This document shows positions 616 to 18,296 of a stretch of DNA of 64,000 nt, piece after piece. Source of the DNA: a virus; IMG/VR virus record IMGVR_UViG_3300023174_000056, positions 1 to 64,000 of that record. One strand, 5' to 3'. The notes below the pieces were generated by a model. The model saw nothing but the letters and a program-made list of their open reading frames with translations, was not told where the DNA came from and did no database searches. Position 1 is the stretch's first letter. Each line of letters starts with the position of its first letter. The position numbers and the translations under genes are program-made.

Positions 616-825
616 ATGACTTACACACAAGGACAACTAATAGTTATCCGCACTAGATTACTTCTGAGAGGTGCCATAGATGCTGGGGGCGAATCCGAAG
701 CAATCTATATGTTTTTATCTTCAGAAGACGGTATTGCAAAAGTATACAAACTTTCTACTGGCGACACAATACTTATTGATTTAAGTGATCCAAGAATCAT
801 ATCGCACCAACCTTACAATGGGTAA
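616..825 (+). CDS. Small hypothetical protein, the only credible plus-strand ORF
   Basis: Fills the gap between tRNA-Gln and a structured RNA; ACTATTTATA motif 2 nt before ATG. Confidence 0.55.
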   Translation: MTYTQGQLIVIRTRLLLRGAIDAGGESEAIYMFLSSEDGIAKVYKLSTGDTILIDLSDPRIISHQPYNG

Positions 826-833
826 AAAAACAT

Positions 834-969
834 TATGCGGGGTTGGTTTCTCGACCCAACGACTATCTGCGCTTCCATAATTTTGTCTCAAGGCAATTGG
901 TGTTCAATGCACCAAACCCGACTGGGTGTTCGCAGCAGAGTTGAACACCAATAATAATTAGCCCGCATA
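834..969 (-). ncRNA. Structured non-coding RNA of about 136 nt in the tRNA cluster
   Basis: Terminal stem TATGCGGG/CCCGCATA, 12-bp stem ATTGGTGTTCAA/TTGAACACCAAT, hairpin GTTGG-GTCGAGAAA-CCAAC beside the closing stem; strand inferred from context. Confidence 0.65.
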
Positions 970-982
970 GTCTTTAAATTGT

Positions 983-1056
983 TGGCAGGGAATGTAGGAA
1001 TCGAACCCACGACAGGAGTTTTGGAGACTCTTATGATACCATTTCACTAATTCCCT
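983..1056 (-). tRNA. tRNA-Trp(CCA)
   Basis: GAGT-CTCCAAA-ACTC, TTCGATT T-loop, CCA. Confidence 0.93.
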
Positions 1057-1061
1057 GTGAA

Positions 1062-1146
1062 TGATGTTGAACCCTCGTATGGGACTTGAACCCATATGAA
1101 CGATCCCTCGTTATCTTGCCGTTAGACGAACGAGGATTCAGCATCA
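1062..1146 (-). ncRNA. tRNA-like RNA 1 (no anticodon, GNRA-capped, extended acceptor stem, no CCA)
   Basis: 17-bp terminal helix with one C-A mismatch; D arm GTCT-AACGGCA-AGAT; AACGA-GGGA-TCGTT; T arm ATGGG-TTCAAGT-CCCAT. Confidence 0.8.
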
Positions 1147-1152
1147 AATTGC

Positions 1153-1228
1153 TGGTGCCGCCCCTTGGGATCGAACCAAGTTTGTCGGTTCTTCAGACCG
1201 ATGCAATGACCACATCTGCTAAAGCGGC
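1153..1228 (-). tRNA. tRNA-Phe(GAA)
   Basis: TCGGT-CTGAAGA-ACCGA, TTCGATC T-loop, CCA. Confidence 0.93.
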
Positions 1229-1403: not shown

Positions 1404-1488
1404 TAACTAAAGAGAACAGGAGTCGAACCTATTATTACAAGGGTGCCCCCTTGCTGTGATTATGTATCCGTTTCACTCTCTCTTGTTA
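1404..1488 (-). ncRNA. tRNA-like RNA 2 (no anticodon, GNRA-capped, extended acceptor stem, no CCA)
   Basis: TAAC-AAGAGA pairs with TCTCTT-TA-GTTA; D-like arm GTG-AAACGGATA-CAT; GCAAGGG-GGCA-CCCTTGT; T arm ATAGG-TTCGACT-CCTGT. Confidence 0.72.
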
Positions 1489-1495
1489 AGAAAAT

Positions 1496-1779
1496 TGGCT
1501 GGCGAAGTAGGATTCGAACCTACGACCCGATGGTTACATACCACTATAGTTTTCACTACCCATTTCTGGTTTGTGGTCTGGACTATTCCATCATCCGCTT
1601 GGGATGGACTGATTATAGTCTCTGCACGTTCCTGATTTCTCAGGCTTCGCTCAAGATTGCCACGCTTAATACTTTAAGCAGAGGGTTCCTTGAATTTACA
1701 GTCTTTTCATTTTGATGTTACCATCAAACGCTGCTATTTTGTTTACAGCCATCTGCTCTGCCTACTGAGCTATTCGCCA
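1496..1779 (-). tRNA. tRNA-Asn(GUU) interrupted by a group I intron (exons 1745-1779 and 1496-1536)
   Basis: 35-nt 5' exon ends GATGG-CT-GT and the 3' exon starts T-AA-CCATC, giving the loop CT-GTT-AA; G73 plus CCA. Confidence 0.93.
1537..1744 (-). mobile_element. Group I intron, 208 nt, no ORF, at tRNA position 35/36
   Basis: P1 GCUGU/GCAGC with U-G at the splice site, P2 with GUAA loop, P3 GACTG/CAGTC, P AAATTCAAGGAA, Q AATCTTGAGC, R TGCAGAGACTA, S GGAATAGTCC, terminal G. Confidence 0.92.
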
Positions 1780-2327
1780 ACTAAACCTAATACTTTTGCT
1801 CTCTTTCTTATTGCATTATCCGATACGCCCAGCATTTTTCCTATTGCTACCATGCTATGCGAATCTAATAAACTCTTTAGATCAACACTATCCCAATTAA
1901 CTTTTCTGTTCTTTATATGAGCGCACTTTTCCGAACAAGTTACATTATTTCTATTTTTTTTCTTGCCACAAACAGGGCACTCATTCATTTTATCCAATCT
2001 TTCAGTTTCTCTATAATTTTCAAAGATTGGATTGAAGGTTGGCAAATTATTTGGTATTTCAACCAAACCTTCATGGTATTCTCTATGGCACCGACAGCAT
2101 AGGATAACACATTTTTTGACTTCAGAAACGAGTCTTGACCAGCTTTTTATATTACCTCTTGCTGCTCCTAATGCAAACTCTTTAGTAGATGGATCAATGT
2201 GATGAAAATCTAAAGCGCCTTCACATTTAGAATAATTACATATTACACATTTTCCGCCCATAGCTTCCAACAATCTCAACTTTGTTTTAAGTCTCCATTG
2301 TTTTACCTTATCCGAACTTTGACTCAT
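1770..2327 (-). CDS. Free-standing HNH endonuclease with Zn ribbon and C-terminal HTH
   Basis: CVICNY...LDFHHIDP...LCCRCHREYH; CPVC...CSEKC; SMVAIGKMLGVSDNAIRKR; stop codon lies inside tRNA-Asn. Confidence 0.9.
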   Translation of the reverse strand: MSQSSDKVKQWRLKTKLRLLEAMGGKCVICNYSKCEGALDFHHIDPSTKEFALGAARGNIKSWSRLVSEVKKCVILCCRCHREYHEGLVEIPNNLPTFNPIFENYRETERLDKMNECPVCGKKKNRNNVTCSEKCAHIKNRKVNWDSVDLKSLLDSHSMVAIGKMLGVSDNAIRKRAKVLGLVGE

Positions 2328-2548: not shown

Positions 2549-2638
2549 TGGTCGGCCTGCTAGGAGTCGAACCTAGTCTAGGCGGTCATCTACCGCAAAG
2601 CGATTATAAGTCGCTCTCGCAATCCGATGCACAGGCCG
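2549..2638 (-). tRNA. Atypical tRNA, anticodon UAU (nominally Ile), with long variable arm
   Basis: AGCGA-CTTATAA-TCGCT; V-arm GCGGT-AGATG-ACCGC; T arm CTAGG-TTCGACT-CCTAG; acceptor CGGCCTG/CAGGCCG-A-CCA; short D arm. Confidence 0.85.
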
Positions 2639-2728: not shown

Positions 2729-2933
2729 AGTCTATCACAGAGCGTCGAGCGTGTCAAGCACTCTTTTTTTTCTTTCGTTCTGCGCTGCGTTCTCTTTCAT
2801 CGCAGCGACAAGAACCATTCTAGCAGAGCGTCGAGGACTTGTCAAGCACCCTCTCGCTCTTTTTTTCGTCGGTGCGCCTTGCTTTCATCGCCACCGTGAA
2901 GAACAGTCTATCATGCGCCGCTCACGTTGTCAA
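2729..2933 (-). promoter_or_regulatory. Three tandem sigma70 promoters (88-bp period) driving the tRNA cluster
   Basis: TTGACA-N17-TAGACT (2729-2757), TTGACA-N17-TAGAAT (2817-2845), TTGACA-N17-TAGACT (2905-2933), all with extended -10 TGn and upstream A-tracts. Confidence 0.9.
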
Positions 2934-4658: not shown

Positions 4659-4958
4659 TCAAGACAGAATCTCCAAATCATTGATGTTTTCGGTAAAGAT
4701 TTCTCCTTCTTCATCTTCAACGACAACAACCTGATCTCCCTGTTTAGAATAAGCAATAATCTCTAATTCAGAATCTGGGTAGTGTCCTGAAATGACTTTA
4801 GTTCCAAGTGGAACATCCCTTGCTTTCAAATCCTTGCTAATTGGCTGCTTATCAATAACTTTTTCAAGTCTATCCAAGGCAGAATTAAGCCTACTCTCAA
4901 GTTTGTTAATATGCAACCAAAGACGATCAATTGAATGTTCCATCTCATTAAATTCCAT
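4659..4958 (-). CDS. Hypothetical protein (coiled coil plus SH3/KOW-like)
   Basis: Packed ORF; VPLGTKV...DLEILS. Confidence 0.65.
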   Translation of the reverse strand: MEFNEMEHSIDRLWLHINKLESRLNSALDRLEKVIDKQPISKDLKARDVPLGTKVISGHYPDSELEIIAYSKQGDQVVVVEDEEGEIFTENINDLEILS

Positions 4959-16602: not shown

Positions 16603-17613
16603 TCATAGCCTCTCTGGTGAGTCAGACCAATAAATTTCTGTTGATCTTGGGAGTTTATTAACAAACCACTCCTTCATCTGATCCTCTGATTTGAATTCTA
16701 ATAGCGCACCAGATTCATCATAAATCTTCCATTGCTTAATATCTCTCAGGATATCGGCTTTATTAAATACAATCTTATTAGCTCCATTTAGATCGATAGC
16801 CTTGAAAAGGCTTTTTGTATTAATCCAATTACATTGTCTTGCTCTTCCAGTTGTTGCGCCATATTCTGCACCTTTTTCACGGATTTCATTAAAAATTGAA
16901 TCCTCTGGCTCAAACTTTTTCATTCCAACATAAGTCTCATAAACCTTAGCAACGCCCCAGACATTACGGATCCTTCTTGGAGGAACACCATTAGCAATTG
17001 CAGCAGCAACAGTACATCCACTAGAAGTAACATAAGGATAGTCTCCCCAGTCAATATCCAATCCAAAGCCCTGCGCACCTTCAAAAAGGATTCTATTAAT
17101 CTCTCTAGAAGTGTATAGTTCTTCATACATATCAATTAGATATGGCTTTAAAATTTCTACCTGTTCCGCTCGTATGCCCTTACGCCAATGTTTGTCACGA
17201 TAGGCTTGACCGACTCCACGCTTGGTTGTTCCGATAGTGTTATCTTGTCGGTCTTCTTCAATGTGTTCGCTAGTAATGATGTGCGCATTGCGGGCGATGA
17301 AAACAACGCCATCAGTTTTAATACCACCATCTTGAAGCTCCTTTAATTCTTTAAAAAAATGTTCAACGTTTACCACACAGCCCGGTCCAATGATGCTCTT
17401 AATACCAAAAAATACTCCGCTTGGAATACTGTGTGTTACAAACTTTTTTCCTTGATGATAAATTGTATGACCAGCATTATTACCACCGTTATAACGAACA
17501 ACGTGTGTATAATTTTCTCTTTTGCATAATTGGTGTGTTACTTTGCCCTTGCCGCTATCTCCATAAGCCAAATCTACTACAACATCTGCGTAATCAATCA
17601 TATATTCTCCCAA
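16603..17613 (-). CDS. purA: Adenylosuccinate synthetase (short form)
   Basis: GDSGKGK, GGNNAGHT, EGAQG, DWGDYPYVTSS, EYGATTGRAR. Confidence 0.95.
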   Translation of the reverse strand: MGEYMIDYADVVVDLAYGDSGKGKVTHQLCKRENYTHVVRYNGGNNAGHTIYHQGKKFVTHSIPSGVFFGIKSIIGPGCVVNVEHFFKELKELQDGGIKTDGVVFIARNAHIITSEHIEEDRQDNTIGTTKRGVGQAYRDKHWRKGIRAEQVEILKPYLIDMYEELYTSREINRILFEGAQGFGLDIDWGDYPYVTSSGCTVAAAIANGVPPRRIRNVWGVAKVYETYVGMKKFEPEDSIFNEIREKGAEYGATTGRARQCNWINTKSLFKAIDLNGANKIVFNKADILRDIKQWKIYDESGALLEFKSEDQMKEWFVNKLPRSTEIYWSDSPERL

Positions 17614-18296
17614 TCAAATTGTATCTTGACTCTATCATCACTATAGCACAGCCTACGGTAGTGTTCAACATCTGCGCTCCACCGCATACCCGTCCACCAT
17701 TCAAAACCGTCGTAATAGCTTTTATAAATTGAACAGCTTTCATACCCAGAAGATAAATAAACAAAATCATATTTTTTTAATTTTGCATAAGAGCATAAGT
17801 AATGAATATTTAATCTTCCAAGAGATAGTTTAGAATCTTCATAATCCCAAGCAAATTCAACAGCAAATATGTTATTTGCCAATAATTTAAAAAAACAAAA
17901 GCCAATTATTTTTCCATCGTAAGTATAATAAACATGACCATTTGAGGTTTTTATTATATCTTCTAATGTATAATCTTGGCTTTTGAAATTTTTATATTTT
18001 ATGTATTTATTGTATATTTCACCAAATATTTTTTTCTTATTTTCTGTGAGAGAAATATCAAAATAGACTTTTATTTTTTTACTTTTACTTAAAAGTTTTT
18101 TATTTGGTAAATAATTTTTAATATTGATTCTTGTTGATCTTGTTTGAAACCATAAATTATTAACTAATGGACACCATCCACCCTCTATGGCTTGGCTATA
18201 TTCTTCTTCGCCTACTATGGCACCAATTGGAACATAAATATATGATTGATCACGCATTTTACCGAAACCATGCGTGTGGTCATATATTATCTTCAT
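17598..18296 (-). CDS. Aminoacyl-tRNA-protein transferase, ATE/Bpt-like
   Basis: GW motif, TRSTRIN, WDYEDSKLSLG, YL.SGY...SIYK pattern of the ATE C-terminal domain. Confidence 0.75.
   Translation of the reverse strand: MKIIYDHTHGFGKMRDQSYIYVPIGAIVGEEEYSQAIEGGWCPLVNNLWFQTRSTRINIKNYLPNKKLLSKSKKIKVYFDISLTENKKKIFGEIYNKYIKYKNFKSQDYTLEDIIKTSNGHVYYTYDGKIIGFCFFKLLANNIFAVEFAWDYEDSKLSLGRLNIHYLCSYAKLKKYDFVYLSSGYESCSIYKSYYDGFEWWTGMRWSADVEHYRRLCYSDDRVKIQFDWENI

Follow-up and report, generated by a model that had tools for sequence, protein, structure and literature searches.

A candidate non-decoding, tRNA-shaped RNA in the tRNA cluster of an uncultured phage

Phage tRNA clusters are now read chiefly as replacing tRNAs that have been destroyed by host defences. 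What, then, is to be made of a cluster that also holds a sequence that folds as a tRNA and has no anticodon loop with which to read a codon? Such a sequence might be a tRNA gene surviving as a relic, a mark for the processing of a transcript, an element of the DNA itself, or the gene for an RNA whose work lies outside of decoding.

The locus that raises this question lies within the first 64 kb of a 168-kb phage record in IMG/VR that is approximately 92% complete. This 64-kb stretch is called the window here. No close cultured relative of the phage was found among GenBank phages, where the best match to its DnaB is 38% identical.

A cloverleaf between two tRNA genes

The tRNA cluster runs on the minus strand from 339 to 2638. 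ARAGORN calls nine tRNAs in it, and Rfam adds a group I intron that interrupts a tenth, tRNA-Asn(GUU). In the relatives G001, G004, and G006, tRNA-Asn occupies the same slot in the gene order and has no intron. All ten true tRNAs encode a CCA at their ends, as a preliminary description of this DNA had reported.

That description had also placed a cloverleaf on the minus strand between tRNA-Trp and tRNA-Phe, with a D arm identical to that of the neighboring tRNA-Glu and a canonical T arm. This is correct to the base. RNAfold returns the cloverleaf at -32.3 kcal/mol, with a z-score of -4.5 and with none of 200 shuffles folding as well. The stretch UCGUCUAACGG in the element is the same as in tRNA-Glu (1238-1312), and the T arm is there as described (Table 1). 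The absence of a tRNA call and of a dedicated family had been anticipated as well; ARAGORN calls no tRNA at the element, and Rfam, RF00005 included, gives no match to 1062-1146 at gathering scores or at E<=10.

The acceptor helix of this element is long. Here, the outer bases UGAUG (1146-1142) pair with CAUCA (1066-1062), C1141 stands opposite A1067 as a mismatch, and UGAAUCCUCGU (1140-1130) pairs with ACGAGGGUUCA (1078-1068) through eleven pairs. The total is 16 pairs and one C-A mismatch. U8 and C9 follow the 5' strand of the helix, and the nucleotides that build the tRNA elbow (G18 G19, U54 U55 C56, U8, A14, and the 15-48 pair) can all be found by inspection of the sequence. By analogy with tRNA structure, U48 of the variable region could pair with A15 as a Levitt pair.

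Two features that define a working tRNA are absent. The canonical 7-nt anticodon loop, with its U33 and its anticodon, is replaced by a 4-nt GGGA on a 5-bp stem. Nor is there an open 7-bp acceptor stem that ends in a single-stranded discriminator and CCA. The duplex runs 9-10 positions further, and the bases past the 7-bp stem read U-UCA instead of N-CCA and are paired in this phage. The G3-U70 identity of the tmRNA type is likewise absent; position 3-70 is C-G, and there is no CCA.

Table 1. Positions in the window of the tRNA-like element, its parts, and features of the surrounding cluster
Feature	Position	Strand	Basis or remark
tRNA-like element, entire, including the outer helix specific to this phage	1062..1146	-	sequence; fold
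Outer helix, 5' strand UGAUG, this phage only	1142..1146	-	paired in the fold; no counterpart in G006, G001, L181, L208
Conserved 12-position acceptor helix, 5' strand CUGAAUCCUCGU; last 7 are tRNA positions 1-7	1130..1141	-	pairs with 1067-1078
D arm GUCU-AACGGCA-AGAU; G18 G19 and A14/A15 retained	1113..1127	-	sequence
Capped arm AACGA-GGGA-UCGUU, in place of the anticodon arm	1099..1112	-	sequence; covariation
Variable region, 3 nt, CAU (NAU across homologues)	1096..1098	-	alignment
T arm AUGGG-UUCAAGU-CCCAU	1079..1095	-	near-invariant in 5 homologues, one A-U to G-U change
Conserved acceptor helix, 3' strand ACGAGGGUUCAA	1067..1078	-	covariation; RNAalifold
Outer helix, 3' strand CAUCA; homologous tail is CACCA in G006, UUCCA in L181	1062..1066	-	fold and alignment
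tRNA-Trp(CCA), downstream neighbor; begins 5 nt past the element	983..1056	-	ARAGORN and Rfam
tRNA-Phe(GAA), upstream neighbor; its CCA ends 6 nt before the element	1153..1228	-	ARAGORN and Rfam
tRNA-Asn(GUU), split in the anticodon loop (CUGU/UAA) by a group I intron	1497..1779	-	RF00028, 62.5 bits
Three tandem predicted sigma-70-type promoters, extended -10, at the cluster head	2729..2933	-	consensus scan, 10-11/12 positions each

The promoters predicted at the head of the cluster have the form TTGACA-N17-TAGAxT, with TG-extended -10 boxes, and are spaced 88 bp apart. A terminator-like hairpin with a T-run, read by eye, follows tRNA-Leu near 2370-2410, and a weaker promoter match (2380-2352, 9/12 positions) lies ahead of an HNH gene. 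As both of these stand between the head promoters and the element, the transcript that carries the element cannot be assigned with certainty.

The cluster holds other unusual genes. The first in the operon (2549-2638, minus strand) encodes a tRNA of 90 nt that has UAU as its anticodon, a D arm of unusual form, and a long variable arm. It is called by ARAGORN and not by the Rfam tRNA model, is 93% identical in G006, and has a similar gene in G004 and G005 that ARAGORN misses. A 185-aa zinc-finger/HNH-like open reading frame (1770-2327, minus strand) has its stop codon within the 5' end of the tRNA-Asn that holds the intron; on the opposite side of tRNA-Asn in G006 lies a reading frame (L150:5815-6215) whose cysteine and HNH-type motifs are similar.

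After tRNA-Trp comes a third structured RNA of approximately 150 nt (825-982, minus strand), which is closed by the helix AUGCGGG/CCCGCAU, contains a long hairpin, and ends in a run of U. A copy that is 83% identical immediately precedes tRNA-Gln in G001 (L153:5549-5702). In the window, a 69-aa reading frame without a family match (616-825, plus strand) is oriented opposite to the tRNA operon between this RNA and tRNA-Gln; it is missing in G001, where the two abut. Outside the window, the same genome carries a tmRNA (154576-154865, minus strand; tag ANEDVEFESYALAA, by ARAGORN) and a lone tRNA-Gly(UCC) at 152894-152967.

Homologues, strand, and covariation

A fixed-spacing pattern of the exact design of the element matched nothing elsewhere in IMG/VR, the neighboring 287-aa protein used as a query found no relatives, and blastn against 50,697 GenBank phage records returned no homologue, only T-arm fragments of 18-32 nt within true tRNAs. 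Relatives were located instead via the DNA polymerase and, for L208, via a small zinc-ribbon-like reading frame.

Four homologues were obtained in all, each from an uncultured phage or contig, and these fall into two sub-lineages. G006, whose DNA polymerase is 75% identical to that of this phage, has a copy, matched at 86% identity, between tRNA-Glu and tRNA-Thr. G001, with a polymerase that is 90% identical, has a more distant copy that shares the T arm and the variable region and has a wholly different acceptor helix. L181 (a metagenome contig) and L208 (a viral contig) carry variants of the G001 type. Since neither G004 nor the complete relative G005 (with its 24 tRNA genes) carries a copy, the element is optional and dispensable.

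The copy in G006 (L150:5560-5670, minus strand) is flanked by a 10-nt direct repeat, CACCAAUUUG, of which one copy consists of the end of tRNA-Glu and a spacer, and the other of the tail of the element and a spacer. Because of this repeat, the sequence suggests an origin by tandem duplication of a tRNA gene. In G001, a folded segment directly 3' of the element (L153:7733-7815, plus strand) contains the hairpin GCAGG-UUCGAUU-CCUGC, which resembles a T arm, and is not called as a tRNA.

The five sequences (this phage, G006, G001, L181, and L208) align without any shift of register. Standard pairs fill 94.6% of the cells of the proposed helices, as against 33-45% when the partners are slid by one to three columns. 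Both sides have changed in 14 of the 26 pairs, and the covariation score was reached by none of 500 shuffles; this support comes, of course, from five sequences that sample two sub-lineages only.

The acceptor helix contributes most strongly. Here, 9 of the 12 pairs have changed on both sides, 98% of the cells are paired, and one pair shows four types in five sequences. The pairs beyond the usual 7-bp stem also covary, with A-U becoming G-C at -1:73, and with U-A/G-C and G-C/C-G exchanges further out. In the capped arm, three of the five pairs covary. The D stem is weaker, with 85% of its cells paired and two double changes. Without a structure as input, RNAalifold arrives at the same long acceptor helix, capped arm, and T arm, and leaves the weak D stem unpredicted. 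The T arm is the best-conserved part among the homologues, and the D-loop GG, the T-loop UUCAA, U8, A14/A15, and U48 are invariant in all five.

The alignment also speaks to the strand, and through it to the possibility that the locus acts as DNA. An inverted repeat of 12-17 bp is, of course, also a DNA palindrome, which might extrude as a cruciform, serve as a site of recombination, or be the target of the HNH homing endonuclease of the cluster. HNH genes are mobile within these tRNA clusters, and the direct repeat in G006 flanks the element. However, three of the helices contain G-U pairs, which on the other strand or in DNA are A-C mismatches. These fix the strand of the element as minus. 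With a covariance model, the minus strand reaches 98-104 bits and the plus strand 18-29 bits, and the T-loop and D-loop motifs are specific to tRNA and oriented with the operon. A function at the level of DNA is therefore hardly credible.

If a tRNA gene had lost its function through a small deletion in the anticodon loop, and survived because it is young or hitch-hiking, this would explain the D arm shared with tRNA-Glu, the resemblance to tRNA-Gln, and the absence of the element from some relatives. Truly truncated tRNAs do exist in this clade; in G007, a remnant of tRNA-Lys (L154, ~4880-4925, minus strand) consists of an acceptor stem, a short linker, a T arm, and ACCA. Further, a second tRNA-shaped sequence in this cluster, described below, has no homologue in five relatives. 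Against this, the two-sided changes run across lineages whose acceptor helices have almost no sequence in common, the tetraloop arm and the 12-bp helix are present in all five copies, and the divergence of the homologues argues against their recent copying from one another. A relic would not gain five covarying pairs past positions 1/72.

The element is also as conserved as the adjacent true tRNAs. Between this phage and G006, its identity is 82.9%, and five true tRNAs in the same pair of phages range over 75-93%.

The preliminary description had held that this was no decaying pseudogene and that it could not decode. Both views stand: in four homologues, compensatory changes preserve the helices, the part beyond positions 1/72 among them, and none of these homologues has a normal 7-nt anticodon loop, so that two of the conditions set in advance for rejecting the idea turned out in its favor. 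With its structure, strand, conservation, covariation, and context observed here, the element is very probably a selected structured RNA and not a relic; the neutral relic is highly improbable.

Other parts of that description do not extend to all of the homologues. The acceptor helix of 17 positions with one C-A mismatch is present here, but the helix conserved in all five copies is 12 bp long (7+5), and the outer 5 bp are unique to this phage. The cap, described as a GNRA tetraloop, is GGGA here, but GGCA, which is not GNRA, in the four homologues. The lack of a CCA is likewise true of this phage, but in two of the five copies, one in each sub-lineage (G006 and L181), a CCA stands two bases past the 12-bp helix.

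The tails make this plain. The five bases past the 12-bp helix are CAUCA in this phage, CACCA in G006, UUUUA in G001, UUCCA in L181, and UCCUU in L208. In this phage, a U replaces the first C of the CCA, and the tail is base-paired. The occurrence of CCA at the same place in both sub-lineages hints, as far as these tails can tell, at an ancestral form that ended in CCA. Because of the CCA in these two homologues, sealing of the acceptor end is not upheld for the family as a whole, and the further closure seen in this phage may be fortuitous. The claim that the RNA cannot be charged is therefore borne out in part: the 3' end is buried in a helix and lacks CCA in this phage, but the end is not sealed everywhere.

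What might a tRNA that cannot decode be for?

Selection appears to have made a choice among the parts of a tRNA. It keeps the elbow, the T arm, a capped stem, and a lengthened, closed acceptor helix. It discards the anticodon loop and the open CCA end. What is kept and what is discarded together point to a job that is done by tRNA shape alone.

The explanation that we prefer, tentatively, is that the locus is a gene for a non-decoding, tRNA-shaped small RNA, maintained by selection, that binds by its shape as a stable look-alike of a tRNA. Here, we infer transcription, release, stability, and binding. The RNA would be a remodelled tRNA paralogue, its D arm and its U1 start being of the Gln/Glu type, that selection keeps in a clade of uncultured phages with genomes of ~170 kb. 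It would presumably be transcribed together with the tRNAs of the cluster. Its release would then be a by-product of the maturation of its neighbors, as RNase P cuts at tRNA-Trp, which lies 5 nt downstream, and as RNase E or exonucleases act behind the CCA of tRNA-Phe, which ends 6 nt upstream.

The released molecule would have its D/T elbow and its L-shape intact, and both of its working ends closed. With a GGNA tetraloop in place of the anticodon loop, it would read no codon and would offer nothing to anticodon nucleases. The 12-bp helix would put the usual RNase P cut spot inside a duplex and, in this phage, the five additional pairs would bury the place of the CCA, so that the RNA would not be charged. 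Such a molecule could occupy a factor that recognizes the body or the elbow of tRNA, perhaps a host tRNA-directed defence nuclease, perhaps an enzyme of tRNA processing or modification.

This last step, action as a shape mimic or decoy, which the preliminary description had also put forward, is possible and is held with less assurance than the statement as a whole. Against it stands the fact that the anticodon loop is what most of the known anticodon nucleases recognize, and a decoy that lacks this loop could not mimic it.

In the chief alternative, the tRNA shape would simply be a handle in cis that recruits RNase P, RNase Z, or RNase E to cut the transcript, with the excised piece having no function. 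Plant mitochondrial t-elements and mascRNA act as processing handles, and RNase P prefers a U at position -1. In agreement with this, the element lies within a tRNA operon, follows the CCA of the upstream tRNA by 2-8 nt in four of the five homologues, has a U directly before the 12-bp helix in four of the five copies, has a CCA just beyond that helix in two, and has its T arm as its most conserved part. However, the flanking tRNAs in this window and in G006 already supply cut sites, the tRNAs in L181 lie only 2 and 11 nt away, and the element in L208 precedes a reading frame, with no tRNA. A handle has no need of a covarying capped arm or of a conserved GGNA loop.

The geometry of the helix bears on this as well. 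The elbow is where RNase P, RNase Z, and the CCA-adding enzyme all grip a tRNA, and RNase P cuts at a set distance from this point (PMC4919913). By this rule, the cut would lie within a helix that selection has lengthened, at a depth of five pairs in the conserved duplex and of ten positions in this phage. A stable look-alike that works by shape is favored because a handle would hardly be selected to lengthen this helix, and because both neighboring tRNAs already provide the sites for cutting. The processing handle is thus rather unlikely.

A different use would follow if the ancestral form, with its CCA end and its 12-bp stem, were charged by a synthetase that is blind to the anticodon and donated its amino acid outside of the ribosome, for example to a transferase of the ATE/Bpt type, the copy in this phage being a CCA-less derivative. 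The CCA at the same place in G006 and L181 suits this proposal, as do the other tails, which differ mainly by C/U changes, and the phage does encode an ATE_C-like aminoacyl-tRNA-protein transferase (17598-18296, 28.8 bits against a cut-off of 25). But CCA is absent from three of the five copies, including this one, with its paired tail; the pairs nearest the end and the discriminator are not conserved, so that no common identity set for a synthetase is visible; and no gene for a CCA-adding enzyme was found in these phages. As a partner for the element, the transferase was rejected, since it does not track with it: G006 has the element, and the transferase is missing from between the same two neighboring genes. 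Such an acceptor RNA is quite improbable.

The transferase gene is of interest apart from this. In the window, it follows a gene for a PurZ-like short adenylosuccinate synthetase (the two together spanning 16603-18296, minus strand; PF00709, 279 bits; PHROG "2-aminooxy adenylosuccinate synthetase"). It is present in G001 and absent in G006 and G005. The synthetase hints at a genome with a modified base, and the transferase at the tagging of protein N-termini.

Might other genes reveal the partner? A comparison of gene content found no tRNA-related protein that co-occurs with the element. Three of the phages that carry it have in common PurZ and small reading frames without Pfam matches, which are absent from G005, a distribution confounded by phylogeny. 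A gene for PTH2 was not found in this phage. Ro60, which had been suggested as a partner, is unlikely to be one, as no TROVE/Ro60 gene was found in this phage or in four relatives.

Why does this matter? The element is a compact case, backed by covariation, of a small RNA that can be cloned. Should it prove to act on an enzyme that recognizes tRNA, as a decoy or an inhibitor, phages would have a new type of counter-defence that is based on RNA; as a processing mark and nothing more, it would add modestly to the biology of phage RNA.

Related forms and known systems

A loose pattern was also scanned against IMG/VR, requiring intact acceptor and T stems, with true tRNAs removed by ARAGORN. Among the matches listed, at least 21 anticodon-less tRNA-like sequences, from at least ~19 lineages, lie in the tRNA clusters of unrelated phages. 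Leader and trailer pair over at least 3 bp in 6 of these 21 (among the matches listed), whereas 4 of the 607 real phage tRNAs at those loci show such pairing (Fisher p 1e-7; 2e-6 when counted by lineage).

GGCA or GGGA caps appear on unrelated stems, in the L030/L088 group, in L037, in L043, and in the second tRNA-shaped sequence of this cluster. The cap recurs in 3 of 19 lineages among the matches listed, where 0.8% would be expected (p 4e-4), and common descent may explain part of this recurrence. Neither of these exact patterns was found when the genomes of 185,579 species of bacteria and archaea were scanned. Some matches to looser patterns proved, by ARAGORN, to be true tRNAs with short spacing (Cys, His, Leu, and a UUA suppressor), and L159/L162 and L163, which had at first resembled the family, were set aside as probably real tRNAs on the same grounds.

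The second tRNA-shaped sequence of this cluster (1404-1489, minus strand) is flanked by tRNA-Lys and by the tRNA-Asn that carries the intron. Here, GGCA caps a stem of 7 bp, a T arm is present, and the acceptor stem of 7 bp is continued by four more pairs across an A-A mismatch. The z-score of its fold is only -2.4, it has no homologue in five relatives, and model R1, run on this genome, did not match it at E<=1. It was left out as support for the first element.

In the unrelated L030/L088 group (L030:3740-3830, plus strand; L088:2225-2330, minus strand), a sequence of like design has a GGCA cap and the same T arm. It is preceded by a hairpin whose stem covaries between the two contigs and whose loop, CUGCCA, is complementary through UGCC to the cap. 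To judge from these letters, a loop-loop contact between hairpin and cap is possible. As a general role for the GGNA loop, pairing with the 3' ends of tRNAs (NCC) or with a nearby UGCC was set aside, for a complementary loop was found only in the L030 group and nothing comparable near the element in this window.

Is there, then, a dedicated class of sealed tRNA decoys, carried by phages to soak up a host factor that recognizes tRNA shape without being consumed in the process? This is unlikely, and the proposal is worth stating for what it would entail. The factor might, for example, be a defence toxin that cleaves or modifies tRNA, or else an enzyme of processing, and the GGCA/GGGA cap would be a specific point of contact. 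If this were true, the real tRNAs of both the phage and its host would be protected during infection.

A search of the literature, incomplete in its coverage and thus no proof of novelty, found no description of phage tRNA mimics that lack an anticodon and have an extended acceptor helix. A general catalogue of candidate structured RNAs does contain "tRNA-like" entries (PMC10690425).

Compared with a canonical tRNA (RF00005) of the Gln/Glu type, the element has the cloverleaf, the D arm of tRNA-Glu, the T arm, the elbow nucleotides, the U1 start, and a variable region like that of tRNA-Gln, within the same operon and on the same strand. It differs in having a 4-nt loop in place of a 7-nt loop, a 3-nt variable region, 12-17 acceptor positions, and no CCA. 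A YrlA-type Y RNA, known from bacteria and phages, is also a non-decoding mimic of the tRNA elbow. There, however, a loop closes the acceptor end, and the anticodon side opens into a helix that binds Ro60; the topology of the element is the reverse, and no Y RNA of Rfam matches it. The element fails the defining tests for a tRNA, for YrlA, and for the tRNA-like domain of tmRNA.

The tRNA-like RNAs of the mascRNA/MEN-beta type and the t-elements of plant mitochondria likewise have the shape of a tRNA, form part of longer transcripts, and have an anticodon arm that is reduced or of no consequence. They come from eukaryotes or organelles, and their defining feature is an open acceptor stem of 7 bp at which RNase P and RNase Z cut. 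In the element, by contrast, the acceptor stem continues as a duplex, with the expected RNase P site, as placed by sequence, inside it.

The closest parallels are found among phages. Stable tRNA-like RNAs of T4 and T5 have been known since the 1970s and 1980s and are still unexplained. Species 1 RNA of T4 (rnaC) and RNA1, RNA2, and RNA3 of T5 are annotated as small stable or tRNA-like stable RNAs of unknown function. Like the element, whose status as an RNA is a prediction, each is a non-tRNA, non-decoding RNA in a phage tRNA cluster, with a closing helix like that of an acceptor stem and the canonical T arm GGUUCGAAUCC. When folded, they show the closing helix and the T arm, with inserts or an abnormal loop at the site of the anticodon arm. 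The inserts are long, or the loop is of 6 nt (T5 RNA3, which ends in CCA). No sequence homology joins them to the element (blastn, GenBank phages). The element differs from them in being compact (75-85 nt), in having all four arms, in its tetraloop-capped anticodon stem, and in its lengthened acceptor helix. Judged by this analogy, it is a compact, four-armed, closed-end form of the long-known tRNA-like stable RNAs of phages.
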